A stretch of 64,000 nt of DNA from Octopus vulgaris (taxonomy: Eukaryota). Shown here piece after piece: positions 27,561 through 52,410 of the stretch (its first letter is position 1; each line of letters starts with the position of its first letter). The notes beneath the pieces were generated by a model. The model was not told where the DNA came from. It saw only the letters and a list, made by a program, of their open reading frames with translations, and did not search any database. The stretch is taken from the NCBI GenBank assembly GCA_951406725.2, contig OX597827.1, forward strand, positions 64,294,001 through 64,358,000, written 5' to 3'. The position numbers were made by a program, and so were the translations under genes.

Positions 27561-27695
27561 AAGAAATTTCGAAGTGAACAAGAAATGAAATCTCATTGGC
27601 TAAATAAACACAAAAAAAATTTCATGAGAGCTATAAGCCATCCAATGTATGATACCATAATGAAGAAGGTCCTTGAATGTATTAAACTTAAAGAG
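27561..27695 (+). pseudogene. Parvovirus-like NS1 fragment (type A, diverged copy of 41963-42085)
   Basis: KKFRSEQEMKSHWLN..NFMRAISHPMYDT.MKKVLECIKLK in both copies. Confidence 0.7.
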
Positions 27696-27711
27696 ATAAG
27701 AGGCAGATAAA

Positions 27712-27800
27712 ATGGCACCCTGTTTGTGAACCTCAATCATAACAGGTACATAGGCACAGTGTACATCGGATGAACCAGATGATGATTTATTATCAAGTAA
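27712..27800 (+). pseudogene. Short piggyBac transposase fragment
   Basis: Similar to 50281-50365 (YNK.MGGVDRLNQMMSYY region). Confidence 0.55.
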
Positions 27801-28009
27801 TAAATAGTACACAAGCGTTAAGTTGTATGATACACTTGGTCTTCAACAACAGAATGGCACTTCACAATTCTTGTGAACTGACATTACAAGATGGAAATCG
27901 CCAATTTAATAATGACAGTGAGGGACTAGATTTCTTTCGCAAACAATATTATTCCCAGTACTGTAAATAACCCAACAGCAGACAGGAAATCTGCTAGCGG
28001 CAGCGTACA

Positions 28010-30762
28010 TAGAAGCAAGAGACTTCCGTGGTTGGACAGCTTTGCATGATGCTGTGAATAACCATCAAACTGAAGCTGTGAAGCTCTTAATATCTCGGAG
28101 CAGCGTGGTGAATGTGAAGAACTAATACGGCCAGACTCCTCTCCATCTGGCAGCAGGGTCATGTGAGAAGGAATGGACAGATGTCGTGGCAGCATTAATA
28201 AAACATAGCGCTCTTGAGGTGAATGCACGAGATAAGAATGGTCACACACCTCTATACTGTGCCTGTTCAAGTGGATACACAAACACAGTTGGCATGTTGA
28301 GTAAAATGGCATCGATGTCAATGTGGTGGACAAAGGTGGTAACACACCAGAGGCAGTTCAGGAGCGTATTATACAATCTTTGATAAAATCAATGATGATG
28401 ACGCTGAAGGTGTGAAAACCTTAATAGAGAAGAATCCAGATCAAATTCACAAACCTAATGTAAGGGGACAAACTCCTTTAATGTTTGCCTGTGTAAACGG
28501 CAACAGAAGAATAATTGAGATGTTTATAGATGCAAGACAATTCCGTGGTTGGATAGACTTACATGATACTGTGAATAACCATAAAACTGATGCTGTGACG
28601 CTCTTAATATCTCGGAGCAGCGAGGTGAATGTGAAGAATGAATCCAGATATGATGATGCTGAAGGTGTGAAAACTTTAATAGAGAAGAAGCCAGATCAAA
28701 TTAAGAGGACAAACTCCTTTAATGTTTGCCTGTGTAAACGGCAACAGAAGAATAATTGAGATGTTTATAGATGCAAGACAATTCCGTGGTTGGATAGACT
28801 TACATGATACTGTGAATAGCCATAAAACGGATGCTGTGAAGCTCTTAATATCTCGGAGCAGCGCGGTGAATGTGAAGAACTAATAAGGCCAGACTCTCCT
28901 CCATTTGACAGTAGGGTCATGTGAGAAGGAATGGACAGATGTCGTGGCAGCATTAATAAAACATAGAGCTGTTGAGGTGAATGCACGAGATTAAGAAGGG
29001 TCGCACACATCTATACTGTGCCTGTTCAAGTGGATACACAAACACAGTTGGCATGTTGAGTAAAATGGCATCGATGTCAATGTGGTTGACAACAGTGGTA
29101 ACACACCAGAGGCAGTTCAGGAGCGTATTATACAATCTTTGATAAAATCAATGATGATGACGCTGAAGGTGTGAAAACCTTAATAGAGAAGAATCCAGAT
29201 CAAATTCACAAACGTAATGTAAGGGGACAAACTCCTTTAATGTATTCCCATGTAAGGGTCAACACAAGAATAATTGAGATGTTTATAGATGCAAGACACT
29301 TCCGTGGTTGGACATCTTTACATGATGCTGTGAATAGGCATCAACATCAAGCAGTGAAGCTCTTAATATCTCGGAGCATCGAGGTGAATGTAAAGAACTA
29401 ATATGGCCAGACTCCCCTCCATTTGGCTGCAGGGTCATGTGAGAAGGAATAGACAGATGGGATGGCAGTATTATTGCAACAGAGCGGTGTTCTGGTGAAT
29501 GCAAGAGATAAGAATGGTCGCATACCTCTACTCTGTGCCTGTTCAAGTGGATACACAAAAACATATACATAACCCAGAATAAAAACCCAATAATCGAATC
29601 TGAAGACATGGCGTATTATACAATCTTTGATAAAATCAAAGATGGTGACACTGAAGGTTTGAAAACCTTAATAGAGAAGAATCCAGGTCAAATTCACAAA
29701 CCTAATGTAAGGGGACAAACTCCTTTAATGTTTGCCTGTGTAAACGGCAACAGAAGAATAATTGAGATGTTTATAGATGCAAGACAATTCCGTGGTTGGA
29801 TAGACTTACATGATACTGTGAATAACCATAAAACTGATGCTGTGACGCTCTTAATATCTCGGAGCAGCGAGGTGAATGTGAAGAATGAATCCAGATATGA
29901 TGATGCTGAAGGTGTGAAAACTTTAATAGAGAAGAAGCCAGATCAAATTAAGGGGACAAACTCCTTTAATGTTTGCCTGTGTAAACGGCAACAGAAGAAT
30001 AATTGAGATGTTTATAGATGCAAGACAATTCCGTGGTTGGATAGCCTTACATGATACTGTGAATAGCCATAAAACGGATGCTGTGAAGCTCTTAATATCT
30101 CGGAGCAGCGCGGTGAATGTGAAGAACTAATACGGCCAGACTCCTCTCCATCTGGCAGCAGGGTCATGTGAGAAGGAATGGACAGATGTCGTGGCAGCAT
30201 TAATAAAACATAGTGCTCTTGAGGTGAATGCACGAGATTAAGAAGGGTCGCACACATCTATACTGTGCCTGTTCAAGTGGATACACAAACACAGTTGGCA
30301 TGTTGAGTAAAATGGCATCGATGTCAATGTGGTAGACAAAGGTGGTAACACACCAGAGGCAGTTCAGGAGCGTATTATACATACAATCTTTGATAAAATC
30401 AATGATGATGACGCTGAAGGTGTGAAAACCTTAATAGAGAAGAATCCAGATCAAATTCACAAACATAATGTAAGGGGACAAACTCCTTTAATGTATTCCC
30501 ATGTAAGGGGCAACACAAGAATAATTGAGATGTTTATAGATGCAAGACACTTCTGTGGTTGGACAGCTCTACATGATGCTGTGTAAAGGCGTCAGCTTGA
30601 AGCCGTGAAAATCTTAATATCTCAGAGGATCGAGGTGAATGTAAAGAACTAATATGGCCAGACTCCCCTCCATTTGGCTGCAGGGTCATGTGAGAAGGAA
30701 TGGACAGATGTGGAGGCAGTATCATTGCAACAGTGCGCAGTTCTGGTGAATCCACAAGATAA
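28010..30762 (+). pseudogene. Degenerate ankyrin-repeat array with ~1247-bp direct duplication
   Basis: GQTPLMFAC, GWTALHDAV, GQTPLHLAA and GHTPLYCAC motifs; many stops; ORF offsets 28765/30012 and 28953/30200. Confidence 0.85.
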
Positions 30763-30769
30763 ACACTGC

Positions 30770-31357
30770 AGGTAGATCAATGAAATTGTTCAACTATATT
30801 AAATAGTTATCCGGACTCAAAGAATATGCACTCATTAAGATGAAGCAAGAGTGGTGCCAGAAGCAAAACAATGAAAATTTCTTAGGAGCTTTAGCTCATC
30901 CTATGTTTGATTCAATAGCCAGAAATGTGGCCGATTCATGCAAAATGGAAATACTCGCCACTAAATTCCAAAACATGAAATGGAATAAATTCCATGTTCG
31001 TGAATATCACACTGTAGCTACATCACTACGTATATTTCAAAATATATTGAAAGTACAAAACATTCTTATAGATGAATTTGTAACAGACGTATGGAATCTT
31101 CTAAATCAAAAACTTCCAAAAACAAACACTTTCGTACTTGAAGGAGTCCCAAGTAGTGGAAAATCATATATTTGTCGCAGTATTGCACAACTCTTTCAAT
31201 ATTCAGAAACAATACAAGGTACATCTCTTTCCCTTTCCAAGATATGTACCAGACCGAAATTTGCCTCTTTTAGGAACCTAACACGACGTTAGAAACGCTT
31301 CAAACCTTCATAAAGTTGGCTGAAGGAGTAGACACTGCAGTATCCGTAAAATTCAAA
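30770..31357 (+). pseudogene. NS1: Parvovirus/densovirus NS1 SF3 helicase fragment (type B)
   Basis: KLPKTNTFVLEGVPSSGKS (Walker A); after a frameshift FPFQDM..ICLF*EP (Walker B) and QTFIKLAEG. Confidence 0.8.
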
Positions 31358-31645
31358 ACCAAACTCCTTTAATGTTTGCCTGTGTAAACGGCAACAGAAG
31401 AATAATTGAGATGTTTATAGATGCAAAGACACTTCCGTGGTTGGACAGCCTTACATGATACTGTGAATAGCCATAAAACGGATGCTGTGACGCTCTTAAT
31501 ATCTCGGAGCAGCGAGGTGAATGTGAAGAACTAATAAGGCCAGACTCTCCTCCATTTGACAGTAGGGTCATGTGAGAAGGAATGGACAGATGCTGTGAAA
31601 GCATTAATGAACCATAGCGCTCTTCAGGTGAGTGCACGAGATATG
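31358..31645 (+). pseudogene. Ankyrin-repeat fragment
   Basis: Same sequence family as the 28-30.7 kb array. Confidence 0.8.
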
Positions 31646-31844
31646 AAGGCTGGGGGGGGTGCAGTTTTGGAATTGAACATGCATGCGGAGCCTGAAATAT
31701 CAGAACAATTGACTGAGAATACCAGAATGGGATATTTTTCATTTATCATTTTCGTATTTCAATTTCCATATTTATGTAATTGTGATGTTTTATGTCCCCT
31801 CTGTTTAGCCCTTTATGGGTAATAAAGACATATATATAGGCTAG

Positions 31845-33005
31845 TCTAGGTGAGTTGTTTGCTACCATGAAATCGGAAGATGCTGCATCTTTCTTGGCAG
31901 CAAAGGTTATTATACCTAGCAATAAGAAGTGTAAAAAAGGGCACCGAATGATAAATTGGTAGCGAATAATGTTTGCTGGCGGTGTAATCGCAAAGGCTGC
32001 AATCAGGAGTTGTCTGTCCGGAAGGGAACATGGCTTGAAGGCTGCACGCTCCCTCTGCAGACCGTAGTCCTTTTTTTGTACTCTTGGGTCAAGGAACTGA
32101 CTACAGTGCGTTATTGTGTAGAAGAACTGGGGATGAGCCACGGTTCAGTTGTGGATTACAACAATTATGTGCGAGAAATATGCGCGCATGACTTGCTAAT
32201 GAACCCAATTGTAATAGGTGGTCCTGGGAAGATTGTCGAGATAGACGAGAGTCTTCTCTAGGAGGAAGTTTAATCGAGGAAGGGTGTTACCTCAGCAATG
32301 GGTATACGGTGGGGTGTGTCGTGAGACCAGAAGTTTTCCTTTATGCAGTACCTTGTACAAAATTGCAAACTTTCGTTCCTTCAAATTTATTTCATTTCAA
32401 ATTACAATAGGAAACTTGATGTGCCTTTTGGGCGTAATTCCACAACCTGCAAACACTGACGCTGACAATTTCGACAGGGACACGCTGCTCAGACTGCAAA
32501 ACATGCTTCATGTGCACAACAGCTATATTCGAACTGGGGATGAGCCACAGTTCAGCTGTGGACTACAACAATTATGTGCGAGAAATATGCGCGCATGACT
32601 TGCTAATGAACCCAATTGTAATAGGTGGTCCTGGGAAGATTGTCAAGACAGTCTTCTGTAGGAGGAAGTTTAATCGAGGAAGGGTGTTTACCTCAGCAAT
32701 GGGTATTCGGTGGGGTGTGTCGTGAGACCAGAGAAGTTTTCCTTTATGCAGTACCTTGTCGGAATTGCGACACACTCGAAGAATGCATCCGTCGCTCAAT
32801 CCTCCCAGGTACCACAATATTTAGTGACCTGTGGAGGGCTTATTCACATATTCCAGAGATCGAGGGATACAATTTGACAGAATGGTGAACCACAGCATCG
32901 AGTTTGTTGACTCCGTTGATAACACACACCCAACAAATAGAGAGTACTTGGGCGTGTTTGAAATGGGGTAACAAGCGACTTTGTGGTACATATCGTTCTA
33001 TGATT
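31845..33005 (+). pseudogene. Merlin (IS1595/ISXO2-like DDE) transposase family A, duplicated and interrupted
   Basis: WRC..C..SVRKGTW, IGGPGKIVEIDES, RKFNRGR..QQWVFGG, ILPGTTIFSDLWRAY. Confidence 0.85.
32360..32532 (+). pseudogene. Helitron RepHel fragment
   Basis: FLQIYF and DRDTLLRLQNMLHVHNSYIR. Confidence 0.65.
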
Positions 33006-33010
33006 GACAT

Positions 33011-33326: not shown

Positions 33327-34205
33327 ATGTTGTATGAGATAGAAAGTATCGTGAAAGACTTTGATAGTATTTATTCCTTCCTCAAGGACAAAAAGGTCTT
33401 AAGTTCCTCTTCGCCAAATTGTTCGAGATGCCAGAGAGAGATGACTGATAAAACACAATCAAGAAAAAGTATTTCGCTGCCCAACTCACAAAGGGGAAAA
33501 AGAATCAATTAGAAGGAACTCCTATCTCGAAAATAGCAGATTGAAACTACATGATTTCATACATATAATATATTGTTGGGGCAATAACCTAACAATAACA
33601 GCAACAATAGCAATGACTGGATTGTCAAAATGTACCGTTATTCAATGGTTCCAATACATGCGAGATATCTGTAGTAACAATCTGGTCAACAATCCATACC
33701 AAATTGGTGGTGTCGGAAAAGTTGTTGAAATAGATGAAAGTCTGATGTGCAAGAGGAAGTACAATAGAGGGAGAACGCCACAAGAGAGATGGGTCTTTGG
33801 AGGTTATGATAGAGAAGAGAAAAAGGCTTCCTACTCTTCGTAGCTGACCGTTCCTCGGAAACTCTGCTACCCATCATCAAAAAATATATTAGACTGGGCA
33901 CAACAATTCATTCGGATTGCTGGGCCGCCTATAATGGGATTGCAGAAATGGATGTGACACCAAAATACATCCATTTCAAAGTAAACTATTCCCAGAATTT
34001 TGTGGATCCGCTAACAGGTGTACACACAAATTCTGTGGAATGTTACTGGAAAAATGCAAAAAGAAAATTTAAAACGATGATGGGGGTACATTCCACCATG
34101 GTGGACTCGTACCTTGAGTTTCTGTGGAAGGAACAGTATGGACAAAATGAAAACGATTGTGTGATGAATATTCTGAAACATCTTTCAGAATGGTATAAAA
34201 TTTGA
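33327..34205 (+). pseudogene. Merlin transposase family B, near full length, frameshifted
   Basis: IGGVGKVVEIDES..KRKYNRGR..WVFGG; HSDCWAAY; NFVDPLTGVHTNSVECYW; upstream CCAAT box; 5' part repeated at 51482-51860. Confidence 0.85.
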
Positions 34206-34968
34206 AGGGGTATGATGTCACGCGTGTATTGAAACCATTGAAAAGAAAATTTAAAACGATGATGAGGATACATTCCACCATGGTGGACTCGTACCTTGAG
34301 TTTCTGTGGAAGGAACAGTATGGACAAAATGAAAACGATTGTGATGAATATTCTGAAACATCTTTCAGAATGGTATAAAATTTGAAGGGGTATGATGTCA
34401 CGCGTGTATTGAAACCATTGAAAAGGAAATTTAAAACGATGATGAGGATATATTCCACCATGGTGGACTCGTACCTTGAGTTTCTGTGGAAGGAACAGTA
34501 TGGACAAAATGAAAACGATTGTGTGATGAATATTCTGAAACATCTTTCAGAATGGTATAAAATTTGAAGGGGTATGATGTCACGCGTGTATTGAAACCAT
34601 TGAAAAGAAAATTTAAAACGATGATGAGGATACATTCCACCATGGTGGACTCGTACCTTGAGTTTCTGTGGAAGGAACAGTATGGACAAAATGAAAACGA
34701 TTGTGTGATGAATATTCTGAAACATCTTTCAGAATGGTATAAAATTTGAAGGGGTATGATGTCACGCGTGTATTGAAACCATTGAAAAGAAAATTTAAAA
34801 CGATGATGAGGATACATTCCACCATGGTGGACTCGTACCTTGAGTTTCTGTGGAAGGAACAGTATGGACAAAATGAAAACGATTGTGTGATGAATATTCT
34901 GAAACATCTTTCAGAATGGTATAAAATTTGAAGGGGTATGATGTCACGAGTGTATTGAAACCATTGAA
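34059..34968. repeat. Tandem repeat, 180-182-bp unit, ~5 copies, built from the Merlin 3' end
   Basis: ORF offsets 34382/34564/34746. Confidence 0.95.
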
Positions 34969-37207
34969 TAACAGAAATTAGAACGTGACATTTCTGCTAA
35001 GCTGCCGCAATTGCTTAATTAAGACTTAAATTGAAAGGTGCAAATATGTGACGAGGTTGAAAAAAAATGTATTTATCTAATTGACTATTTTGCTACACTG
35101 TCATAAAATCGCTACAATATCATGAAAAAATTAAGGTATGTACAACATATATTATTGTATACATATATACAGTATCTACAATAAGTTAGTACACACAACG
35201 ATTTTTTAAATTTTTACTTCTTAGAACTTTATTTTTTCGTAGGATTTAAATGAAACTCGATGTAAACCTAGCCATATATGTAAATTTAAATATGCATAAA
35301 CGTTAGGGTTCAAATTTGTTGTTTATTACAAATTATAGGAGAAAATCCATAGTCACAGTACAATAAATTAGTACACAGCTATGGAAGTCACTAATCATGA
35401 ATAAATATTTACTTAAATAGCTATAAATTGCAGAACTTTCTGTTGGCACCTTTTTATTGTACCCTAATAAATAACCAAAGGCATTTCATTGGCTGTTTGT
35501 TTACATTACGCTGCTATTGCTTGGATCTATTGCTACCAAAGTTTCTCTCATATTATTCTTGGAAATGGCTCCTCGTGGCAATGAATTACATGAAAAAACT
35601 CGTGAAACTATTGTTAATTTATTCAAGAGTGGTCATTCATATACGGAAATAAGTGGCAATGTAAATATCAGCCGAAATACGGTAACAAAAGTTGTTCAAC
35701 GGTACAAAAAAGCTGGAACCGTCACAAATGGCTGCCGTCCCGGTCGACCAAATAAGTTTTGTGATCGAACTAAGAGGCGCATGAAACAACTTATAGAGGG
35801 AAGCAGACGTCGGAGTGCTGCTAGCGTCGCAGAAGAAATTTCACACAGTTTAAACGTAACTGAGTGCTCAGACAGTGCGCAACATTCTCCACGAAGACGG
35901 GTTTAAAGGCTGCATGCCCCGAAGGAAGCCTCTGCTGAAAACTTCCCACAAAAAGAAGCGTTGTGAATTTGCTAATAATCATAAAGACAAAGATATGCAG
36001 TTTTGGGACAAAATCCTTTGGTCTGACGAGACGAAAATAAATCTATTCGGCTCAGATGGCGTTAAGCGTGTGTGGCGACGAAAAGGGGAGGCTTACAAGG
36101 ATAAGTGTGTCGTGCCAACTGTCAAGCATGGAGGTGGGAGCTTGATGATTTGGGGGTGTATGAGTGCCAAAGGAGATAAACGACTTGCTTTCATCGAAGG
36201 AAAAATGGATTCAAAACTATTGCCAGATATTGGAGGAAAACATGTTACCAAGTTTAACAAGTGTTGGCAGACGTGGAGTTTTCCAGCAGGATAACGACCC
36301 TAAGCACACGTCGCGGCCTACGAAGGCGTTCTTAGAAAGTAAGCGAGTGAATACCTTACCATGGCCGAGTATGTCACCTGATTTGAACCCAATAGAGCAT
36401 CTGTGGGAGCATCTAAAACGGAAAATTGCAGGGAAAAATCCGAGAAATATTAACGAAAACAAGGAGGTCATCAAATGTAAATGGAACGCAATTCCGGCAG
36501 ACACATGTCGTAAACTAGTGGAACCAATGCCTAGGAGGTTGTCTGCTGTTATTGATAACAATGGAGGCCATACAAAGTATTAAAAATAGGCTTATTTGTT
36601 TAAAGCGCTCCTGTGTACTTACTTTTTGTTACTTGTTCTAAATGTTTTTGTTTAATTATTCTACATTGAAAAGATATTTGTTCCTTCATAGTTTATAAAG
36701 TTATTAAACCACTACATGGCTATGTTCACATCGAGTTTCATTTAAATCCTACGAAAAAAATATAGTTGTAAGAAGTAAAAATTTTTTAAAAATCGTTGTG
36801 TGTACTAACTTATTGTAGATACTGTATATACACTTTTAAAAATTATTTACTTTGTTCAAAAAATATTAATATTAATTAATTTTCAAGAATTATTTAATTT
36901 ATATAATTAATTCATTAATTTTATTCTGTAAAATAGCAATTCATTTATCTGTAAATCCGCGAGGAAAGCGACTATGTAATTTTTTTGTGTAAAATTGAAA
37001 ATGTTATATACACACACACACACACAAACACATATTTTTTGTGAAATCCAACACCTTTTTGTCTTAAAAAAGCAGAAATGTATCTGAAAAAATCCGGGGG
37101 GGGGGGGTTAACGCGCATGCGCAAGTCACCTCGTTGGATCTCGAGTAGAGAACCTACGTCTGGTGCACGCGCCCGTGCAACCGGGACCACTACAATAGAC
37201 AAGTACC
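34935..37207 (-). mobile_element. Truncated Merlin-type element in the opposite orientation, hosting the Tc1 insertion
   Basis: Minus strand reads SVIQWFQYTRDI (cf. TVIQWFQYMRDI at 33632); TIR-like ccgggaccact..aagtacc ends at 37207, as in the MITEs at 58150 and 60812. Confidence 0.55.
35170..36824 (+). mobile_element. Full-length Tc1 (DD34E) transposon with IR/DR-type ends; transposase 35565-36583 has two frameshifts
   Basis: TA-CAGT..ACTG-TA ends, >100-bp TIRs with inner repeats; GRP, ILWSDETKINLFG, TVKHGGGS, FQQDNDPKH, SPDLNPIEHLW. Confidence 0.95.
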
Positions 37208-37583
37208 TGATTGACATATCTCGGCGAATTCATGAGGTGGTGCAGACACGAGAAATGTGACCTTTGGGAGGAATTGCTGGCAAACATTAGAAATTTCTCC
37301 AATTATTGTTAATCCTTTCGGTACTAGATTAGCTGAGGATTACTTGACATTTTATATCTGCTGTAATATTTGCAGCTTTAATAAATTGTTATAGTATGAA
37401 ACAATTGTACTAAATTACCGGATCTATTCTTGTTGCTTATATATATACATATATATATATATATATGTGTATATTATATATTTATATATACTTTCATCAT
37501 CGTTTGAACAAGCAGACACTTAATTTTTCTCAGATAGAAAGACATCAACCCGGAATCAAAACCCAATAATCGAATTTGAAGAC

Positions 37584-39165
37584 ATGATGTATTATACAAT
37601 CTTTGATAAAATTGAAGATGGTGACGCTGAAGGTGTGAAAACCTTAATAGAGAAGCACCCAGTTAAAATTAACCACCATGATGTAAGGGGACGAATTCCT
37701 TTAATGTATTCCCATGTAAGGGACAACACAAGAATAATTGAGATGTTTATAGATGCAAGACACCTCTGTGGTTGGACAGCTCTACGTAATGCTGTGTATA
37801 GACGTCATCTTGAAGCCGTGAAAATCTTAATATCTCGGAGCATCGAGGTGAATGTAAAGAACTAATAACTAATATGTCCAGACTCCTCTGGAAACAACAT
37901 ACATACATATAACTTGAATCTGAAGATCTTACGATCTCGGGGTAGCGACGTGAATGTGAAGAACAAATATGGCCAGACTCCTCTCCGTTTAGCAGCAGGG
38001 TCATGTAAGAAGGAATGGACAGATGCCGTGGCAGCATTAATACAACAGAATACTGTTCAGGAGAATCCACGAGATAAGAAACTCTCTGGAAACTATATAC
38101 ATATATATAACTTGAAAATGAAGATCTTACGATCTCGGAGAAGCGAGATAAATGTGAAGAACAAATATGGCCAGACTCCTCTCTGTTTGGCAGCAGGGTC
38201 ATGTAAGAGGGAATGGACAGATGTCGTGGCAGCATTAATACAACAGAGTACCGTTCAGGAGAATCCACGAGATAAGAAACTCTCTGGAAACAATGTACAT
38301 ATATATAACTTGAAAATGAAGATCTTACGATCTCGGAGCAGCGAGATAAACGTGAAGAACCAGACTCCTCTCCGTTTGGCAGCAGGGTCATGTAAGAGGG
38401 AATGGACAGATGTCGTGGCAGCATTAATACAACAGAGTACTGTTCAGGAGAATCTACGAGATAAGAAACTCTCTGGAAACAATGTACATATATATAACTT
38501 GAAAATGAAGATCTTACGATCTCGGAGCAGCGAGATAAACGTGAAGAACCAGACTCCTCTCCGTTTGGCAGCAGGGTCATGTAAGAGGGAATGGACAGAT
38601 GTCGTGGCAGCATTAATACAACAGAGTACCGTTCAGGAGAATCCACGAGATAAGAAACTCTCTGGAAACAATGTACATATAGATAACTTGAAAATGAAGA
38701 TCTTACGATCTCGGAGCAGCGAGATAAACGTGAAGAACCAGACTCCTCTCCGTTTGGCAGCAGGGTCATGTAAGAGGGAATGGACAGATGTCGTGGCAGC
38801 ATTAATACAACAGAGTACCGTTCAGGAGAATCTACGAGATAAGAAACTCTCTGGAAACAATATACATATATATAACTTGAAAATGAAGATATTACTATCT
38901 CGGGGCAGCAATGTCAACGTGAAAAACAAATATGGCCAGACACCTCTCTGTTTGGCAGCAGGGTCATGTGAGAAGGAATGGACAGATGTCGTGGCAGCAT
39001 TAATAAAACATAGCGCTGTTGAGGTGAATGCACGAGATAAGGGTCGCACACATCTATACTGTGCCTGTTCAAGTGGATACACAAACACAGTTGGCATGTT
39101 GAGTAAAATGGCATCGATGTCAATGTGGTTGACAAAGGTGGTAACACACTACTGAGGTAGTTCAG
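37584..39165 (+). pseudogene. Ankyrin-derived locus; ORF 37914-39155 consists of ~6 tandem 180-186-bp units
   Basis: NVKNKYGQTPL.LAAG repeats; shares its 5' leader with the copy at 29570. Confidence 0.8.
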
Positions 39166-39169
39166 GAGC

Positions 39170-41930: not shown

Positions 41931-41962
<32 letters not shown>

Positions 41963-42515
41963 AAAAAATTTAGAAGTGAGCAAGAAATGAAGTCGCACTG
42001 GCTTAACAACTAAAACTTTATGAGGGCTATAAGCCACCCAATGTACGATACAGTAATGAAGAAAGTATTAGAATGCATAAAATTAAAAACACTTGTGCCA
42101 TTTAAAGAAAAATTCGAGAGCATGAACTGGGAACTTTTTGATAATAACAAAAATGAATATATGGACAAAGATATGTCACTGAAAGTCTTCAAAAGTATTT
42201 TAATGACACAAGACATTTGCGAAGCGCTATTCGTACAAAACGTTTGGGAAACTTTAACAAAGAAAAAACCCAAAAGAAACCTTTCAGTTCTGAGAGGATT
42301 ACCAAACACCGGCAAATCCATGATAGCACACACGTCAGCACCATTCAAGGTACCAGCAGCTTTCCGTTTCAGAATCTGATAAACGTAGAAATTGGTCTAA
42401 TTGAAGAGCCAAACTTCACCCTCAAAACATTACAAACATTTAAAAAATTAGCCGAGGGAACTGATACGGAAGTGTTAGTTAAATTCAAGCAAGATCAAAT
42501 TAAACAGAACTCATA
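41963..42515 (+). pseudogene. NS1: Parvovirus/densovirus NS1 SF3 helicase fragment (type A)
   Basis: KPKRNLSVLRGLPNTGKS; FPFQNL..IGLIEEP..QTFKKLAEG; aligns by eye with type B. Confidence 0.8.
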
Positions 42516-42524
42516 AAAGTTATA

Positions 42525-43165
42525 TGTCCAGGAAAAGAAAAAAATGACTCTAGAGATGGTATACATAGCTATCAATAAATAGAATGACAGTCTATTGCAT
42601 GACATTGATAACACCCCATCAGCAGAACGGGTTCGAACACACAGGGTATTACCCAAACATACGGAAATCTACTAAATCGATCAGTTAAACTTGGAAACTA
42701 TACGCTCTAAATATAAAGCTGACATTTACGGTCCTCGACAAATCTTACATGAGTCGTTCGAGGACATATGTCGAAATTTCATCCCACAAACAGCCGAAAA
42801 AACAAAGACGACCATTTAAGGTAGGTGGTGTCTTGCATTCAGGTAGGCTGCATAAATGTGTGTGGCCTGTCGTCGAACTGGAAGCAAGGGCGCTTCCTAA
42901 ATGACGTCAGGTCACACCATTTGCAAATACGTGACATGAGCGTTACACCAGTACGTGAAGAACCAAATAAGACCCCCTCATTGACTCAGGAAGAAATAAT
43001 TTTTCTCGCATGAGGAAATAGGTACGGCACTGTGGTAGTGTAGTTTAGAACTGAAGGAACTGCTTGGAGGATGGCAGCAAGAACTGTAAAAACAGACAAA
43101 GTAATTCTTTTCCACTCATATATAGGAAGAAAAACAACCAGAATCAAGGTGGAAATATTTTGCAC
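42525..43165 (+). pseudogene. L1/Tx1-like LINE pieces (ORF1 end, ORF2 start, ORF1 internal), recurring at 47250-47700, 48547-48775 and 49247-49550
   Basis: IQVGCINV(R/C)GL resembles the APE N-terminal motif and follows the ORF1 stop; repeated blocks. Confidence 0.55.
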
Positions 43166-44300
43166 AGTTGACTGCCCTAGATGCCATTTACAATGTACAC
43201 TCCGAAAAAATACAAGCATCTTCCGATGTAGAAGGACTGTTCGCCGTCGAAGACAAAGGCCAACGCAATGTGGATATTCTATATCGCTATACAACAACAC
43301 TTTTTTTGGAGCGGAGTCAGATACCACTCTGTAAAGTCCTGTTATTTATAAATTACTTCCTTACAGACTGTTGGTCGCATGCATTAGTCATGGAAAATTT
43401 AAACATTTCATATCCAACCTCAATTGATTGGCGATCCTTCTGCTTGGAGGTTTGTCAGCATTGGGTTGAAAATTACCAGGACCAAATCGGTGGACCAGGA
43501 GTTGAAGTAGAGATCGATGAGACGGTTATTGTAAGAAGAAAGTACAATCGTGGAAGACTCCCAAAAACTATCTGGCTTTTCGGTGCGGTAGAGCGAGTAG
43601 CCAAAACAAAAGTTTTGATATCTCTTTCATCTGAGTGTGGTGAAGAGGAAAGGCGAGATGCCGCCACACTGATCCCCTTAATTACCCGATATATACGCCA
43701 AGGGTCCATAGTATATAGTGATTCTTGGAAGTGCGTCAGGGTAGGGGGGGGGAGGGAGGCTGAATGTATATAAATATCATTTCAATGCAACTTTCAATAT
43801 AATTAGAAGACTACTAGCTATAATGCCTCACACACCAAGATACCATCGCTTCTGTTTCACACTGAACAACTACAATGAGGAAGATGTACATAGAATTAAT
43901 AATTTGGACCATATACGTTACATGGTTGTGGGAAAGGAAATATCCACCACTGGAACTATACATCTTCAGGGATATATTCACACTGTTGTTAGAGTTAGCC
44001 TTAAGGCTATGAAAAAAAGGATTTCTCCGAGAGCACATGTCGAGATGGCAAAAGGATCAGAAAAACAGAATATAGATTACTGTCAGAAAGAAGGAGATTA
44101 CTTCACCAAAGGAGAGACTATTGAAGGGGAAATTTAGAAATTCCGCATCAACCACAATGAAAATTTTGTTGATCCCACAAACGCATCGGTGCACACACAG
44201 ACGATAGAGAGATTGTGGGGGTCAGTTAAGAGATCAGTTGTTTGCCCAGGGATTCGTGCCTGTTATTTAAAGCAATACCTCGCCAAGTTCCTACTTATGG
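43165..44300 (+). pseudogene. Merlin transposase family D, split by the CRESS Rep insertion
   Basis: IGGPGVEVEIDET..RRKYNRGR..WLFG..YSDSW, resumes INHNENFVDP..HTQTIERLW at ~44140. Confidence 0.85.
43823..44137 (+). CDS. rep: CRESS-DNA virus (circovirus-like) Rep, N-terminal HUH endonuclease domain only
   Basis: RCR motif I CFTLNN, motif II HLQGY, motif III YCQKEG; TATA-like tatataaa at ~43768; no helicase half. Confidence 0.85.
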   Translation: MPHTPRYHRFCFTLNNYNEEDVHRINNLDHIRYMVVGKEISTTGTIHLQGYIHTVVRVSLKAMKKRISPRAHVEMAKGSEKQNIDYCQKEGDYFTKGETIEGEI

Positions 44301-44660
44301 AAACCAAATGGACACAAACAAATATTGGAACACAATCATTTTCACATAATGTGGAAATGTAGTTCTCAACGTTGTCCATCAAATGACAGCACTTGGCAGA
44401 AAACTATCCAGGAATACTGGAAGGCTACAGGGTAAAAGCATAAGATACCAAACGCACAGCGTGTAAAATTTCCATCTGCATAAGCTAATTACTTTTGCAA
44501 ACCCCCTAGGCAATTCTTATTAACTACAACAGATGAAACAATTCAGCAACTTAATGATTGGTGTCATGAAGACTACATGGAAACCAACAGACAAACTTCA
44601 CCTAATAAACCATCAGTCTCTTTCCAACAACATTTCAGGGAAATCAATGAAGCTCTTTAA
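44300..44660 (+). pseudogene. Probable parvovirus NS1 N-terminal HUH nuclease fragment
   Basis: One frame reads EHNHFHIMW (HUH) ... NYFCKPPR (Y..K), with two stops. Confidence 0.5.
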
Positions 44661-44849
44661 CTACATAAAATATCTTTAGGGTTACACATAATTTTTTTCT
44701 CTTATTTCTTAATTTACTTTCTTTTATATAATTTGTAATATCGAACGGATAATGTAAACGTTTATCTTCATATTCTAGTCTGTATAATTTGTAACATCTT
44801 TGTTGCACATTCGAAAAATTGTTTTGTTGCTACCCACTGTTGGGTATGC

Positions 44850-45205
44850 AAGCTGCAGGCAAAAGCATGTCTGCTGAACCGATGTTAGGAGATAAAAGAC
44901 TGGACCACCTTCTACACAAGAGGAAGGAAGTACACTACTGTAGAGGTGGGGTTTACAAGTGAAGAAGAAGCAATGAGACACGCCACTATGGTCTTGAAAA
45001 CAACTAGGTGGGTACTCTTACCTACCTATTGCAGAAGACGAGCCGCGAGAGTAAGGATTGGAAAAGAGCCACCAGAAAAGAACGTATAAAGGCTGGTAGC
45101 AGCCATAATATACAATTGCAAAGATGTGGTGGAAATTCTCAAAGTAGAAAAGTCAAGAGATATCAACTGGTGGGGTTATGGTGTGAAGCCACAAGCTCCG
45201 ACGGG
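44850..45205 (+). pseudogene. LINE ORF1 fragment (paralog of the 43000 and 45756 pieces)
   Basis: RGRKYTTVEVGF..MVLKT..VLLPTY resembles GNRYGTVVV.F..TVKT..ILFHSY. Confidence 0.45.
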
Positions 45206-45209
45206 TCCC

Positions 45210-45485
45210 AGCAATCCTTCTAAAGGGGCTCTAACAAGACTACTTTAGATTCTCTTCCAGAGTCTTCCTTGCAACTGGGAGGTCTGCATATGTCATTTCT
45301 ATAATGGAGGTAGTAGAGTAATTGTTAAAAATTATAAACCTGTCTCTCTAACTTCACCTGTCAGCAAAGTCATGGAATACATTGTCAGGAAGAAACTCCT
45401 TGCATTCCTTGTAAATAATGACTTGCTCCCTGACACCCAGCATGGCTTCCGCTCAAGAAGAAGCTGCCTTACACAGCCTTTGTAA
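45210..45485 (+). pseudogene. CR1/Jockey-group RT fragment
   Basis: NYKPVSLTSPVSKVMEYIV..QHGFRSRRSCLTQ. Confidence 0.75.
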
Positions 45486-45537
45486 CATGCTTTGAGAAGA
45501 GCCATGAAAAGTCAACCTGCAACTGTGTGTAATAATC

Positions 45538-45585
45538 AGGAGAAGCCATGCCACGGTGAAATTTGTGGAAAAACTTGTTCCTTGG
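45538..45585 (+). pseudogene. Degenerate C2H2 zinc-finger remnant; similar pieces at 49637-49680 (+) and ~58700-58760 (-)
   Basis: EKPCHGEICGKT and EKPHHSEICGGT versus the consensus EKPYHCEICGKTF. Confidence 0.5.
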
Positions 45586-46374
45586 TCTGGGATGGATTTT
45601 CAATATAATCCACATAATTTCAAATCCTTTAAATACAAGCTATAAGGTCATGTCCAAAAAGTGGTGGTGAGTAAGAGAATTAATCCTTTAGCATTTAAAC
45701 AGGCTACATCTGGCCCCATCACTCGTTTTATGTTCAAGCTGGCCAAATTCAGCCAATGCCTGCAAAAAATGAAACCGTGGAAAAGTGTCTGGCGCCCATT
45801 TGGGACAAAATTGTATATACAGGAAAGAGAGTAAGAAGTGCTACAGTTGAGGTGCATTTCACAGATGCCGAAACGACAAAGCAAATATCTACGCAGACAT
45901 TGAGGAATGATGAAATAATCCGCATTCAGCTGAGAGGGACTGAGTGCTCGTGTGTCAGTAGAAGGAAGAAGACCGAGGTGTTTCAAGTGTTGGAGAGAAG
46001 GGATATGTAATGCCAGAATGTGGAAAAGTAAAAAATGGCAAAGAAGGTAGATGTTCCTCCCGCAAAAGAGAAAAAGTATGGAAACTAACAAGGAGGCGAA
46101 AAAAATGGGGGGAAAAAAAAACCTGAGAAAGAGAAAGAAAAAGGGAGTTACCGTTATGAAAGAGTGTACTTGGAGGACCAGAATGAAAGGAGTTGCAAAC
46201 AAGAACCTATATCTCTGGCACAGGCTCGCTGAATTTCTTCAGATACCATCTGAAGAGCAATATAGGGCTGAAGAGAAGACAACTGTCACAGGGGATATAC
46301 AAGAAAAGATGGAAGGATGTTGTGAGGAAGTTGGGAGTGACTGTCCCTACTTAACCCTTTCATCACTAACCCGG

Positions 46375-46795
46375 CCAAGAGAACCTATTGTTATTTAAAT
46401 GTAAAAAAACCGGCGATTGGTATCGATTAGACTATAATAATTACAAATCGCTAATTATGAAGGAACTACAAAAAAAATATAAGATCACATCTATAGAAAA
46501 CCTGAAGGATATTAACCGAAAAATAAAAGAAGTAATGACCAAACTGGATCTACTAGGTAAGACTGAACCTCTCAAACCTCAGGAGCCAAGGACTAACATC
46601 AAGGACCATAAAAAAGGACTCCCGGAAAACAGGAGTAAGACTAATATGCCCAACTAAGTCAGATATAGGAAGACTTAGCAAAACCATTCTGGACAGTTAT
46701 TCCATGGATTAAACCTCACATTCCACTCAATTTATGGATCAATACTGATGATGTTCTAGAGTGGTATAACTCCATTATTGATAGAAATGGTTGAC
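46375..46795 (+). pseudogene. Penelope-like element RT N-terminal fragment (second family)
   Basis: KC.KTGDWY..Y..LI..KYK, IKDHK and LWINTDDVLEWY match KADKT / LKDHK / QW.NT..VI.WF. Confidence 0.6.
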
Positions 46796-46799
46796 CGAC

Positions 46800-47660
46800 C
46801 TAGCAGAGCCAGAGCCTTAAAGTTACCATCCAGGCAGCACCAGAAATGCTAGAAGAAATTGTAGAGAACATCAACTTCAGTGAAGAGATCACTTTGCGAG
46901 TGGTGGTAGAGGGGCAAAAACCCCGGTGCTACAAATGGGCCACATTTGAGTGGACTGCCCCACCCGCAAAAAAGGAAGAAGGAAGCGGTGATGTGTTGAA
47001 AGGCGAAAGGATAAAGAAGGGAAAAAACAACAGGACGCCGACAGAAGAAAACGATTTCACTCCAGTGAGACAAAGAAAAACTCCTAAAAGAAGCACAAAA
47101 ACCCCAAGCACAAACAAGAAAAAAAAATACCCCACCCCACCACAAGAACCGCCCCCCCCCCCCCCTGCATCCAACTCTAGACAACCACCCCTACCCCTCA
47201 GTGCTGAACAATTTCCTCCCCACCCAGACTCCACCCTATCACCCCCACAATGTCCAGGAAAAGAAAAAAATTACTCTAGAGATGGTATACAAAGCTATCA
47301 ATAAATAGAATGACAGTCTATTGCATGACATTGATAACACCCTATCAGCGGAACGGGTTCGAACACACAGGGTATTACTCAAACATACGGAAATCTACTA
47401 AATCGATCAGTTAAACTGGGAAACTATACGCTCTAAATATAAAGCTGACATTTACGGTCCTTGACACAACTTACACGAGTCGTTGTTCGAGGACATATAT
47501 CGAAATTTCATCCCACGAACAGCCGAAAAAACAAAGACGACCATTTAAGGTAGGTGGTGTCTTGCATTCAGGCTGGCTGCATAAATGTGCGTGGCCTGTT
47601 GTCGAACTGGAAGCAAGGGCGCTTCCTAAATGACGTTAGGTCAAACCATTTGCAAATACG
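46800..47660 (+). pseudogene. L1/Tx1-like LINE ORF1 C-terminal half plus ORF2 start
   Basis: LRVVVEGQKPRCYK (eroded zinc knuckle), K/P-rich tail, then INVRGL. Confidence 0.55.
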
Positions 47661-47699
47661 TGACATGAACTTTACCAGTATGTGAAAAACCAAATTGGA

Positions 47700-48546
47700 A
47701 ATATTTTGCACAGTTGACTGCTCTAGATGCCATTTACAATGTACACTCCGAGAAAATACAAGCATCTTCTGATGTGGAAGGACTGTTCGCCGCCGAAGAC
47801 AAAGGCCAATGCAATGTGGATATTCTATATCGCTATACAACAACACTTTTTTTCGAGGGGAGTCAGATACCACCCTGTAAAGTCCTGTTATTTATAAATT
47901 CCTTATAGACTGTTGGTCGCATGCATTAGTCATGGAAAATTTAAACATTTCATATCCGACCTCGATTGATTGGCGATCCTTCTGCTTGGAGGTTTGTCAG
48001 CATTGGGTTGAAAATTACCAGGACCAAATCGGTGGACCAGGAGTTGAAGTAGAGATCGATGAGACGGTTATTGTAAGAAGAAAGTACAATCGTGGAAGAC
48101 TCCCAAAAACTATCTGGCTTTTCGGTGCGGCAGAGCGAGTAGCCCAAAAAAAAGTTTTGATACCTCTTTCATCTGAGTGTGGTGAAGAGGAAAGGCGAGA
48201 TGCCGCCACACTGATCCCCTTAATTACCAGATATATACGCCAAGGGTCCATAGTATATAGCGATTCTTGGGCTGCATATAACTCTTTTAGAAATCTCGGC
48301 TATACCCACTTCCGCATCAACCACAATGAAAATTTTGTTGATCCCACAAACGCATCGGTGCACACACAGACGATAGAGAGATTGTGGGGGTCAGTTAAGA
48401 GATCAGTTGTTCGCCCAGGGATTCGTGCCTGTTGCTTAAAGCAATACCCCGCCAAGTTCCTATTTACAGAAAGCATCAAACCTACAGCCAAGAGAATACA
48501 CGTATTCTTATTGGCAGCAGCAAGTCTTTATCCTGGCCCGAGATAA
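47700..48546 (+). pseudogene. Merlin transposase family D, uninterrupted copy (ORF 47932-48546); third partial copy at 48775-49247
   Basis: VEIDET, SDSWAAY, INH..FVDP..HTQTIERLW. Confidence 0.9.
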
Positions 48547-49794
48547 TTTCATCCCACGAACAGCCGAAAAAACAAAGATGACCATTTAAGGTAGGTGATG
48601 TCTCGCATTCAGGTAGGCTGCATAAATGTGCGTAGCCTGTCGTTGAACTGGAAGCAAGGGCACTTCCTAAATGACGTCAGGTCACAGCATTTACGTATAA
48701 GAGACCTGAGCAGTACACCCACACTCATATCTGGGAAGAATAACAACCAGAATCAAGGTGGAAATATTTTGCACAGTTGACTGCCCTAGATGCCATTTAC
48801 AATGTACACTCCACGAAAATACAAGCATCTTCTGATGTGGAAGGACTGTTCGCCGCCGAAGACAAAGGCCAACGCAATGTGGATATTCTATATCGCTATA
48901 CAACAACACTTTTTTTCGAGGGGAGTCAGATACCACCCTGTAAAATCCTGTTATTTGTAAATTACTTCCTTACAGACTGTTGGTCGCATGCATTAGTCAT
49001 GGAAAATTTAAACATTTCATATCCGACCTCGATTGATTGGCGATCCTTCTGCTTGGAGGTTTGTCAGCATTGGGGCTGAAAATTACCAGGACCAAATCGG
49101 TGGACCAGGAGTTGAAGTAGAGATTAATGAAACAGTTATTGTAAGAAGAAAGTATAATTGTGGAAGACTCCCAAAAACTATCCGGCTTTTCGGTGGGATA
49201 GAGCGAGTAGCCAAAAAAAAAAATTTTGATACCTTTCATCTGAGTGTGGGCTGCATAAATGTGCGTAGCCTGTCGTCGAACTGGAAGCAAGGGCGCTTCC
49301 TAAATGACGTCAGGTCACAGCATTTACGTATAAGAGACCTGAGCAGTACACCAGTACGTGAAGAACCAAATAACACCCCTCATTGACTCAGGAAGACAGA
49401 GGAGGAAATAGGTACGGCACTGTGGTAGTATAGCTTAGAACTGAAGAAACTGCTTGGAGGATGGCAGCAAGAACTGTAAAAACAGACAAAGTAATTCTTT
49501 CACACTCATATCTGGGAAGAAAAACAACCAGAATCAAGGTGGAAGTATTTTGTGTAATGTGATTAATGAAATGCTTGCAAATAAAAACCTTTTTCCTTTT
49601 TTAAACCTTATTCAAAGTGAATATGAGGTCGGCCTGAGAGAAACCACACCACAGTGAAATTTGTGGAGGAACTTTAACCTTAGTTCAAAAAGACTTTCAA
49701 AAATGGTCCCAAAGTATGGGAGTCAAATAATGAAACAAGGAGTTCAGTACTCTAATAAGAAATTTATACGTGTATGTATTTATTACACATGCAT

Positions 49795-50780
49795 ATAGAA
49801 TGATGGTGGGCTATAAAGGCCGGGTACGTTTCTGACAGTATATGCCCCGAAAGCCCACAAAATGGGGGATCAAAGTTTGGAAGATTTGCGAATCAAATAC
49901 TGGGTGCTGCTCAGGATTCGAATTTTATACAGGCAAAAGAGACAATCATGTAAGTCAGCATGGCCTAGGGTACGATGTGGTCCGGAATTTATCACTTCCA
50001 TACCATAACCAGGGCCGTATATTATTTTATTGACAGATTTTTCAGTTCGATCAAACTTGCAGAGAATTTAGATACTGTGGCAACACATACATGTGCTACA
50101 GTGATCGCTAGTAGAAAAGGACTGCCGTTGGATATAAAAAAAAAGGTGAAATGGCTTCTGCATATCCAAGTCTAAAAGGAATTAATCACCGCGATATTGC
50201 CATCAACGGCAGAAAGGAAATTTGCTAGCGACCGCGATCAATTGTCTGTCTACCTGTGCACGGCCACATGTGGATGAAAATGGCACGCCGTTTGTGAACC
50301 TTAATTATAACAAGTAGATGGGTGGAGTAGATCGGCTGAATCAGATGATGTCTTACTATCCAGTTGGCAGACCGGGGAATAAATGGTCATGATAACTGGT
50401 TTGGTATATAGTAAACATGAGTATTACTAATGTGTTTATACTATATGCCAAATCAGGACCGGCTCGGAAGCGATGCGACCATCTACAGTTCCGAGCAGAT
50501 GTAGTAACGCAACTAAGAGCTGGTTATTCCTAAAAAAAAAAAATAACCGTAGGGAGAAAAAGCAATGCCTGCCAGAGGGATATCCTTCTGAATTCAGCCG
50601 ATCTCCATAAATTAGAAAAAAATGGAGGGTCGCAAAAGGCAGTGTCGTGAATGCCTTCATCAAACAAGGAAAGCTCCTAGTGGAAGGGCTGTTGAAACAA
50701 CTTTCCAATGTGCATTCTGCAAGGTTGCATTATGTAGAGCAGGGTGCTTAACAAATTTTCACGATATGAATATTGTTTGA
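49795..50780 (+). pseudogene. piggyBac transposase (catalytic core plus C-terminal Cys-rich domain), degenerate
   Basis: QYMPRKPTKWGIKVW, FYTGK, DRFFSS, MGGVDRLNQM, C..C...TTFQCAFCKVALC. Confidence 0.85.
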
Positions 50781-51058
50781 TTTGTATATATGTGTGATTT
50801 GATTTTATAAATATTTTCAAAATTACTTCGTTTTTCTTTTTCTTTGTGTAATTTTAATTATAAATAAATATATTCTTGCATTATTTATTCATTATTGTTG
50901 TTTTTAAAAAAGAAATCAAACCAAATCTGCACAAATGACCACCACCGCGATCACATCCACCAATCAGCATGACCACTGACCACCACCGAAACCGCGCGTA
51001 ATTCAAAGTTTGAATGTTCTTCACTTTGATATCAACACGTGCGAAAAAATTTTCAATA

Positions 51059-51482
51059 TGGCTTCTGCATATCCAAGTCTAAAAGGAATTAATCACCGCG
51101 ATATTGCCATCGCCACGGCGATGTGATACCAGAAGATATTTTTTAGTGGCAGTGGAAGATCGGACAGCCGACACCCTTTTACAAATTATACAAGAGCATA
51201 TATTGCCTTGTACAACCATAATTTCCGACCTTTGGCGTTCGTATAACACGCTCAATCAGCTAGGATACAGGCATTTGACCTTGAATCATTCAATAAATTT
51301 TGTTGATCCGGTAAGATTTGCCACAACCCACCATATAGAATGTTTATGGAAGCATGTGAAGAATCGCAACAAAAGAGAAAATGGAACAGCCCGAAATTTA
51401 CTTCAGACCCATCTCATCGAATTCATGTGGCGTTATGAATTTAAGGACGAAATATTCGGAAAGTTATTGGAGCAAATTCGAC
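51059..51482 (+). pseudogene. Merlin transposase family E (start fused to C-terminal half)
   Basis: FLVAVEDRTADTL..ILP.TTIISDLWRSY..LNHSINFVDP..IECLW..EFMWR. Confidence 0.85.
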
Positions 51483-51862
51483 AGTTTGAAAGAGGGGACA
51501 GAGAGAGAGTTCTAAAATCTAACCAATCAGAGCTAACTGACTTCTTACCATGTGCTCTTGTATACTTTATTTTCACCAGATGAACTGTGAGATAAAATTA
51601 ATTACGTCTGTTAAATATTATTAAATATGTTATATGAGATAGAAAGTATCGTCAAAGACTTCGATACCATATATTCCTTCCTAAAGGAGAAAAATTTTGA
51701 GCAGCGTTTCTCCGCTTTGTGCAAAATGCCAGAGAGAAATGACTGATAAAACATAAAGAAAAGATATTTCGGTGCCCAACACACAAAGGGGAAAAAGTAT
51801 CAATTAGGAAGAAATCCTATCTTGAAAATAGTAAATTGAAATTACATAACTTTATGCACTTC
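51482..51862 (+). pseudogene. Merlin family B upstream region and 5' coding end (diverged copy of 33185-33560)
   Basis: Shared agtttgaaagaggggacagag..ctaaccaatcagagc and MLYEIESIVKDFD. Confidence 0.8.
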
Positions 51863-51933
51863 TGTATGTGTGTGCAAACAGATGTATGTATACATCATTA
51901 CAGTTGTGACGATTTCTAATAAAAAAGAATCTC

Positions 51934-52003
51934 TGAGAGAGGAGAGAGAGGAGAGAGGAGAGAGAGGAGAGAGAGAGAGGGGAGAGAGAGGAGAGAGAGA
52001 GAG

Positions 52004-52083
<80 letters not shown>

Positions 52084-52140
52084 GAGAGAGAGGAGAGAGA
52101 GAGAGAGAGAGAAAGTGTGTGTGTGTGTGTGTGTGTGTGC
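51934..52140. repeat. (GA)n-(GT)n microsatellite
   Basis: Direct reading. Confidence 0.95.
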
Positions 52141-52184
52141 ACATATGTATGGGTATATAACACGCATGCATGGAACTTACGGGC

Positions 52185-52410
52185 GTTGAATTGCTTAATT
52201 ACCTCGTAACTTCTACGGATTAAAAATAAAATATTTGTGCTACGCATTCGACACTTTAGCTCCGTCAGAAGAAAAAGAGGCTTTCAAACAAAGATATATT
52301 AGATACAAGTTACCGAATCCAGCATACTTTCTTGTAAAAATCTAAACTTAAGCTCAACCCAGCCATATGGGAAATACTTTTTGATAATCATGCTACTGAA
52401 TTACAAATTG
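52185..52410 (+). pseudogene. Probable NS1 helicase C-terminal fragment
   Basis: LITS, EEKEAFKQRYIRY and KLNPAIWEIL parallel EEQALKNRLFIY..KLNLLMW of type C. Confidence 0.5.

Follow-up and report, generated by a model that had tools for sequence, protein, structure and literature searches.

Fragments of parvovirus-type NS1 genes and a circovirus-like Rep in a strand-polarised transposon cluster of Octopus vulgaris, a candidate uni-strand piRNA locus

The 64,000-nucleotide stretch of Octopus vulgaris DNA considered here (contig OX597827.1 of assembly GCA_951406725.2, positions 64,294,001 to 64,358,000, hereafter the window, numbered from its first letter) carries between 27 and 55 kb the broken remains of several parvovirus-type NS1 genes, the nuclease domain of a circovirus-like Rep, and many fragments of transposons. 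An initial annotation, made from the letters of the sequence, had proposed that at least three distinct NS1 genes of parvoviruses or densoviruses were captured at this locus by independent endogenizations and funnelled into one site. The analysis described below supports the plurality of the NS1 sources, and sets them within a co-oriented collection of viral and transposon scraps that is likely a uni-strand cluster for PIWI-interacting RNAs (piRNAs).

Viral gene fragments and their sources

Three Walker A motifs of the superfamily 3 (SF3) helicase type are found on the plus strand (GVPSSGKS at 31,143, GASNSGKS at 40,340 and GLPNTGKS at 42,296), positioned as had been claimed, and a six-frame scan for G-x4-GK[ST] returned one further match, at 44,843, which has no family support. 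Each of the three frames matches the Pfam hidden Markov model Parvo_NS1 (PF01057), at 40154-40690 (E 6e-14), 42014-42376 (E 1e-6) and 30807-31289 (E 1.6e-3), the last of these also matching PPV_E1_C (E 4e-7). Searches with natural full-length relatives and with other genomic copies map six NS1 pieces in all, every one on the plus strand as first noted; they span 0.15-0.85 kb each, none constitutes a whole gene, and stops or frameshifts interrupt five of the six. Piece B (30,759-31,357, with GVPSSGKS) is interrupted by stop codons and, near 31,226, by a frameshift, and is identical at 72 of 130 amino acids to P0218, which is encoded on a 4,017-base contig. Piece C (39,955-40,800, with GASNSGKS and the PF01057 match at E 6e-14) has a frameshift and stops, falls in a second deep clade and is 81% identical to P0001; the only solved structures matched by type C are the Rep of adeno-associated virus (E 4.5e-6) and parvovirus NS1. 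Piece A (41,873-42,510, with GLPNTGKS) shows a TA expansion at 41,931, a frameshift near 42,330 and, in two of the four sequencing runs aligned, an 11-base deletion at 42,106.

The remaining three pieces had also been anticipated. The second, diverged type A piece suspected at 27561 is real: A' (27,543-27,700) derives from the part of the gene between nuclease and helicase, has a source distinct from that of A, and is 87% identical in amino acids, over 47 codons, to a copy on contig C9. The probable HUH-nuclease piece expected at 44300 was likewise recovered, at about 44,307-44,676, as a B-like sequence present in a single copy in the genome; it is 39% identical over 84 amino acids to P0039 (E 7e-16) and corresponds to the N-terminal portion of full-length relatives, in which HxH precedes Walker A. 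The C-terminal piece proposed at 52185 is present at 52,165-52,550 (piece D) and is the weakest of the six, with 48-57% identity over 21 amino acids to three other copies; it could belong with B or with the HUH piece. The features of Parvoviridae NS1, namely an SF3 helicase with Walker A and B and an HUH nuclease upstream of it, are therefore present. Neither Pfam scans nor homology searches recognised a capsid gene in the window, and inverted matches near the NS1 pieces are only 10-11 bases long, in agreement with the lack of capsid and terminal hairpin noted at the outset. Missing hairpins are to be expected for internal fragments, and parvoviral capsid proteins are highly divergent according to the available text of PMC13426907. 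Because no capsid was identified, we infer the viral origin and the host of the NS1 pieces.

One viral gene had been overlooked. At 43,729-44,140 on the plus strand lies the nuclease domain of a circovirus-like Rep, of the kind found in CRESS viruses, the circular single-stranded DNA viruses that encode Rep (Viral_Rep PF02407, E 9e-23). When aligned to PDB entry 2hw0 (E 2e-14) it presents FTLNN, HLQG and YCQK, which we take to be rolling-circle motifs I-III, and it is the sole Viral_Rep match in the genome, being the one of three candidates that held up. The fragment ends after the nuclease domain, without helicase domain or capsid, and no match to the origin nonanucleotide was found within 43-45 kb. 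A Merlin-type transposase has lost 39 bases to this 412-base insert, which is accompanied by no target-site duplication, and the interrupted transposase is matched at 41 more places in the genome (84-95%). As such, the replacement without duplication of part of a transposase whose family occurs elsewhere points to capture of the Rep through repair-type patching, at some time after the transposon piece had arrived.

The assembly of this mosaic is supported by public sequencing runs, the contigs of 5 out of 24 runs having been aligned to the stretch. Contigs of four runs from four studies align over 39,960-51,900 with few differences, and runs X1, X5 and X9 each supply one contig across the left junction between transposase and Rep; given that contigs of several runs bridge this junction, the mosaic is not an artefact of assembly (X1 might come from a relative of the assembled animal, and by itself is given no weight as an independent run). 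Over 874 letters, one run labelled as another species shows 11 differing letters and 6 gap letters. The locus is real, and it probably predates that species split.

The NS1 pieces differ from one another in a manner that bears upon their origin. A and A' are 93% identical in amino acids, with 6, 1 and 21 differences at first, second and third positions over 43 codons (pN/pS 0.06); A and B, described initially as alignable yet strongly diverged, share 51% of their amino acids, and B and C share 35%. The HUH piece differs from B at 3, 2 and 8 of these positions in a 16-codon overlap, and piece D overlaps no other NS1 piece. Among the window pieces synonymous sites are saturated and pN/pS ranges from 0.06 to 0.59. 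These codon patterns show that the divergence predates insertion and arose under purifying selection, so that A, A', B and C are separate sources. The pieces thus represent four or more sources, each with its own evolutionary history and together spanning two deep clades, which exceeds the three distinct genes first proposed, and the HUH piece is likely a fifth. It could be argued instead that all pieces descend from one integration, since duplicated and decayed, or that they were brought together in assembly, and local tandem duplication is indeed common here among the ankyrin and Merlin units. However, the third-position bias, the saturated synonymous sites and the 35-51% amino acid identity between types refute a single duplicated integration, junctions bridged by contigs of independent runs oppose an artefact, and we consider the chance that either applies to be practically nil. 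The claim of independent endogenizations consequently stands with respect to separate captures (codon comparison and clades), but the site holds more than parvovirus pieces.

A helicase tree of 151 segments and 202 columns (FastTree, stop-free pieces only, no classified reference, with a misaligned piece from contig C25 ignored) separates C from A and B, the two groups forming distinct clades that both have support of 1.0. The phylogeny thereby yields two clades and no subfamily placement: none of the parvovirus subfamilies is assignable from this tree, in which neither clade has a classified member. Relatives of C comprise eight Logan proteins (64-81%), and those of A/B number 56, including Lamellibrachia proteins and long ENA contigs. 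The named proteins nearest to the pieces are 'nonstructural [Octopus vulgaris]' (P0034, 100% identical to an ORF on C9), a protein of O. bimaculoides (P0035, 84% identical to the type A copy on C9), hypothetical proteins of Lamellibrachia, and one from Turdus hortulorum parvoviridae sp. (P0116); among 28 proteins looked up, two bear an organism name, and the single virus-labelled protein is an unclassified parvovirus (E 1e-40). Viral contigs gave no match to type C and two matches at 22-23% to A/B, and a search of metagenome contigs for relatives gave no match. The best matches are parvovirus-type NS1 proteins whose sources are unnamed or unclassified. The proposal of uncharacterised mollusc parvoviruses is thus upheld insofar as the matches are unclassified parvovirus-type NS1, but the A/B lineage also occurs in the tubeworm Lamellibrachia. 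Separately, seven A/B-type NS1 proteins (P0043, P0055, P0060, P0064, P0068, P0070 and P0081) share one contig size, 835,705 bases, which suggests a larger NS1 cluster in another organism.

Such long A/B-type frames on long contigs, the seven on 835,705 bases and those of Lamellibrachia included, could alternatively signify that the NS1-like pieces descend not from viruses but from HUH/SF3 mobile elements that lack a capsid and reside in the genomes of invertebrates, as could the lack of a recognised capsid in the window and the failure of capsid-like frames beside a copy on contig C20 (see below) to match Pfam or PDB. Mobile elements of this kind leave unaccounted for the want of any near-identical copy family, the copies being 57-82% alike with synonymous distances that are high or saturated. 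Furthermore, the nearest relative of B and many neighbours in the tree lie on contigs of about 4 kb, the typical size of a small parvovirus genome, and in the atlas P0004 is surrounded for the most part by clusters of viral NS1. We therefore regard a non-viral origin as improbable.

Strand polarity and composition of the cluster

The transposon fragments from 27 to 54 kb all lie on one strand, the plus strand, a circumstance that the initial annotation did not remark upon. Among open reading frames (ORFs) of at least 62 amino acids between 25 and 64 kb, families of transposon, viral or ankyrin type are matched by 24 of 91 on the plus strand and by 0 of 99 on the minus strand; counted as separate inserts, 16 of 16 are on the plus strand (p about 3e-5). 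Pfam matches below threshold in frames of tandem repeats were put down to chance. Seven consecutive 4-kb bins have an AT skew of +0.085 to +0.19. Probes for short interspersed nuclear elements (SINEs) found one match in the 28-kb cluster, whereas in flanks and controls such matches number 3.7-12 per 10 kb and lie on both strands; the first 26 kb of the window contain 32 of them (18 plus, 14 minus). The 200-kb flanks include 70 kb of low-complexity sequence, and in them no transposon or viral Pfam match occurs among the 150 longest of 187 ORFs, while tblastn found one reverse-transcriptase piece of a long interspersed nuclear element (LINE).

Around the viral pieces are five Merlin-type fragments, Tc1, piggyBac and LINE pieces and two ankyrin arrays, all on the plus strand. 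Proceeding from the left edge, a reverse-transcriptase fragment at 27077-27540 (ORF 27077-27391, no Pfam family), which is presumably Penelope-like, is followed at 28009-31649 by a tandem array of broken ankyrin-repeat units (seven Ank ORFs, self-alignment 79-96%) that piece B interrupts. Merlin/IS1595-type transposase fragments occupy 31935-32990 (PF12762), and at 33445-34985 lies a second transposase of Merlin type (PF12762, E 5e-14), the 3' end of which is repeated as a 182-base tandem. A Tc1-type element with inverted ends and its transposase in three frames (35164-36830) precedes the second ankyrin array (37524-39170, 189-base unit) and a 328-base tandem at 39153-39958, which has no Pfam match and whose unit we assume to be a LINE endonuclease-like piece. 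A LINE piece and the Merlin-type transposase split by the Rep extend over 42524-44306. LINE reverse-transcriptase and ORF1-like fragments are found at 45249-47301 (RVT_1, E 9e-4), the ORF1-like pieces of which match LINE-rich loci L001, L040 and L060; local duplicates of the LINE-Merlin unit that lack the Rep insert, recognised through self-alignment and Pfam, are located at 47250-49552. A piggyBac-type transposase fragment (49836-50172, PF13843), Merlin-type transposase fragments (51083-51892, Pfam and tblastn) and a decayed Merlin-type fragment at the right edge (54028-54354, tblastn E 2e-5 and blastn) complete the cluster.

No intact close host paralogue of the ankyrin units (28,009-31,649 and 37,524-39,170) was found in the genome, and they could be of foreign origin or stem from an element since lost; beyond the cluster they have a single relative, a 94% copy, at 172.160 Mb on contig C1 (L068/L069), of window 37,466-37,738, the start of an ankyrin unit. 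Just outside the cluster are a near-complete LINE on the minus strand (20,659-23,866) and a mariner fragment on the plus strand (18,819-19,151). About 87 kb to the left of the window, a 500-amino-acid C2H2 zinc-finger ORF (L010:2659-4158, minus) was recognised as a gene of host type, the only one in the flanks, and 28-100 kb to the right of the window (L022-L028) there are about 40 kb of 13-18% GC followed by strongly skewed satellite.

Other NS1 loci and the case for a piRNA cluster

Three genome searches found at least 12 further primary loci of NS1, besides a short copy of secondary kind. In the homology searches for transposon pieces, 'LINE_EN' matches were dropped as due to a SINE within the probe. 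None of seven loci compared codon by codon is the parent of a window piece, the window pieces being 57-82% alike to other loci (A/B to A, C to C) with synonymous distances that are high or saturated. Within 10 kb of 12 loci there are 25 transposon-type ORFs on the NS1 strand and 3 on the opposite strand (among the 150 longest ORFs in each of two batches of 465 and 427), and 12 control stretches of 10 kb contain one. This count leaves out three host-type ORFs (two on the same strand, one opposite), the locus of the secondary copy on contig C3 (one reverse transcriptase and one PHD, both opposite) and the ankyrin locus on C1 (none). By locus, 8 of 12 are co-oriented transposon clusters, and all 12 of 12 have a positive AT skew when read in the NS1 sense, though at two of them the value is close to zero. 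With the window included, 9 of 13 primary NS1 loci have the setting of a strand-polarised transposon cluster, which leads us to propose as a rule that NS1 relics sit in such clusters.

The window is the richest NS1 locus found, and 7 of 24 genome matches to P0039 fall within it, as might be anticipated of a hot spot for virus integration targeted by NS1 itself, which the word 'funnel' could imply. A virus-specific hot spot is nevertheless very improbable in our estimation, as the transposons, the ankyrin units and the Rep are equally enriched and polarised, terminal hairpins are lacking, and 12 other loci exist. Funnelling into one site was not borne out, given those loci and the same layout at eight of them; the 'funnel' is a class of loci. 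Nor is the site parvovirus-specific, for it holds Merlin/IS1595, Tc1, piggyBac, LINE, ankyrin and CRESS-Rep fragments as well.

Several of the other loci deserve description in their own right. The longest type A NS1 relic, annotated 'nonstructural', is at 9.513-9.518 Mb on C9 (L032/L033), flanked by LINE ORF1-like and endonuclease/reverse-transcriptase pieces. A second multi-NS1 cluster, at 19.15 Mb on C29 (L034/L035), has at least two type A sources 80% alike together with Merlin and Tc1 pieces. Upstream of a type C piece at C20:32,074,264-32,075,547 (L043, minus) are stop-interrupted frames that appear capsid-like by eye, with no Pfam or PDB match. The secondary copy, 218 bases at C3:182,284,382-182,284,599 in SINE-rich DNA, reproduces two parts of piece C at 98-100%; its skip is non-canonical and it has no tail, and hence it yields no strand information. 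At L062:1233-2234 (C15:58.565 Mb), a 334-amino-acid intronless SAXO1/2-like ORF, co-oriented in a polarised cluster, is possibly a captured host retrocopy.

Taken together, the dense, co-oriented, transposon-derived fragments over tens of kilobases agree with the layout of a uni-strand piRNA cluster, and we favour, with a probability of about 0.7, the reading of 27-55 kb as a strand-polarised store of virus and transposon scraps that is likely a uni-strand (flamenco-type) piRNA cluster. In such a scheme, short pieces of viral DNA or cDNA would be patched in singly by non-homologous repair during germline infections; the locus would be read as a single long minus-strand RNA, antisense to all inserts; PIWI proteins would cut this precursor into 5'-U piRNAs able to pair with transposon and NS1/Rep mRNAs; and inserts of that orientation would preferentially be kept. 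Four Piwi-domain gene loci are present in the genome.

Indications of transcription are slight. None of the 24 runs is on record as RNA. Fourteen small runs, the RNA status of which is guessed, contain 47-93% of the words sampled from the locus, with X1 at 93%; the contigs of X1 total 55 million letters, equal to about 2% of the genome, yet on the core they include unspliced ones that are 1,334 and 2,917 bases long. As whole-genome sequencing is not expected to give such contigs, the cover in X1 is likely RNA or some other enrichment, a hint of transcription only. Two gaps in the X1 contigs, one from 52.2-52.9 kb and one from 53.7-55.3 kb, are crossed by X18 and were not used as evidence. Counts of A>G versus T>C gave no strand signal. 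Minus-strand exons suspected at 56.8, 57.6, 58.8 and 61.1 kb were rejected, no splice joint being found among the matches listed and X1 contigs crossing the first two.

Unspliced cover in runs guessed as RNA would also suit an insertion-prone stretch lying in a minus-strand intron or long non-coding RNA, from which sense inserts are purged as disturbing the transcript and which has no piRNA output; the polarity is then explained without small RNAs. What such a transcript leaves unexplained is the density of coding fragments and the near absence of SINEs, the presence here of the genome's only Viral_Rep match, and the recurrence of this layout at 8 of the 12 further NS1 loci. For these reasons we hold it to be rather unlikely, albeit the strongest competitor to a piRNA cluster.

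A number of points nonetheless tell against the piRNA-cluster reading. The piRNA output of the candidate is deduced from its DNA layout, and ORFs within one locus are not independent of each other. Two of the 12 other loci have no transposon ORF and two have a single opposite one, a sign test by locus (8 versus 2) gives p = 0.055, and the C1 locus depends on one Pfam match plus tblastn. There is no canonical splice joint among the matches listed, and poly(A) signals are as frequent as composition predicts on both strands. Last, the available text of PMC7527727 states that piRNAs derived from an endogenous viral element (EVE) of a psyllid are not required for its antiviral piRNA response, and a role in defence accordingly does not follow from layout. 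The more far-reaching notion, of a heritable record of single-stranded DNA virus infection in which uni-strand piRNA clusters throughout the genome hold NS1 of two undescribed parvovirus lineages and the CRESS Rep, and the resulting piRNAs are used against living relatives, is tentative, and we think it somewhat doubtful.

Comparison with known systems

The locus offers a mapped and testable candidate for piRNA-based virus memory outside arthropods, and suggests that two unclassified NS1 clades, as well as a CRESS virus, probably have the octopus among their hosts. In the literature searched, which left most subscription papers outside, no report of an octopus EVE or piRNA cluster was found. 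The NS1 pieces resemble those of Parvoviridae in having an HUH nuclease plus an SF3 helicase in NS1 order, and differ in forming two clades without a classified member in our tree. Parvovirus-related sequences have been described in six molluscs (PMC5013282); the word 'octopus' is absent from the main text of that work, the supplements of which may include a cephalopod.

EVE-rich candidates for uni-strand piRNA clusters are known in kind, from a psyllid densovirus EVE, slug clusters and parvo-like piRNAs of starfish; the accounts that follow are drawn from the available portions of the works cited. In molluscs, PIWI genes are conserved, and the piRNA clusters of Lymnaea and Crassostrea are enriched for young DNA transposons and have a make-up unlike the rest of the genome (PMC6128900), although the word 'viral' does not appear in the main text of that study. 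The top cluster of the slug Arion vulgaris produces minus-strand piRNAs over densely packed plus-strand transposon fragments (PMC11615739). The octopus locus is comparable to this cluster and to Drosophila flamenco in its dense one-strand transposon fragments, but it is a candidate by its layout and contains in addition several single-stranded DNA virus pieces, of which the available text on Arion (PMC11615739) gives no account. In Diaphorina citri, a 621-base piece of a densovirus lies in a piRNA cluster and gives antisense primary piRNAs (PMC7527727), a parallel to the octopus in that a short piece of the parvovirus family resides within a (here candidate) piRNA cluster; the psyllid case concerns one virus with a known living partner (PMC7527727), whereas the octopus has at least four NS1 sources and a CRESS Rep, and no living partner was found for them. 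The parvo-like EVEs of starfish and sea anemone, which likewise represent parvovirus-like sequence in marine invertebrates, have negative-sense transcripts and 5'-U piRNA-like RNAs, and their authors suggest integration in or near piRNA loci (PMC6085071). In those animals small RNAs were seen and genomic context was unavailable (PMC6085071), whereas in the octopus it is the context that is seen, which supplies the setting that was missing from the starfish and anemone study.

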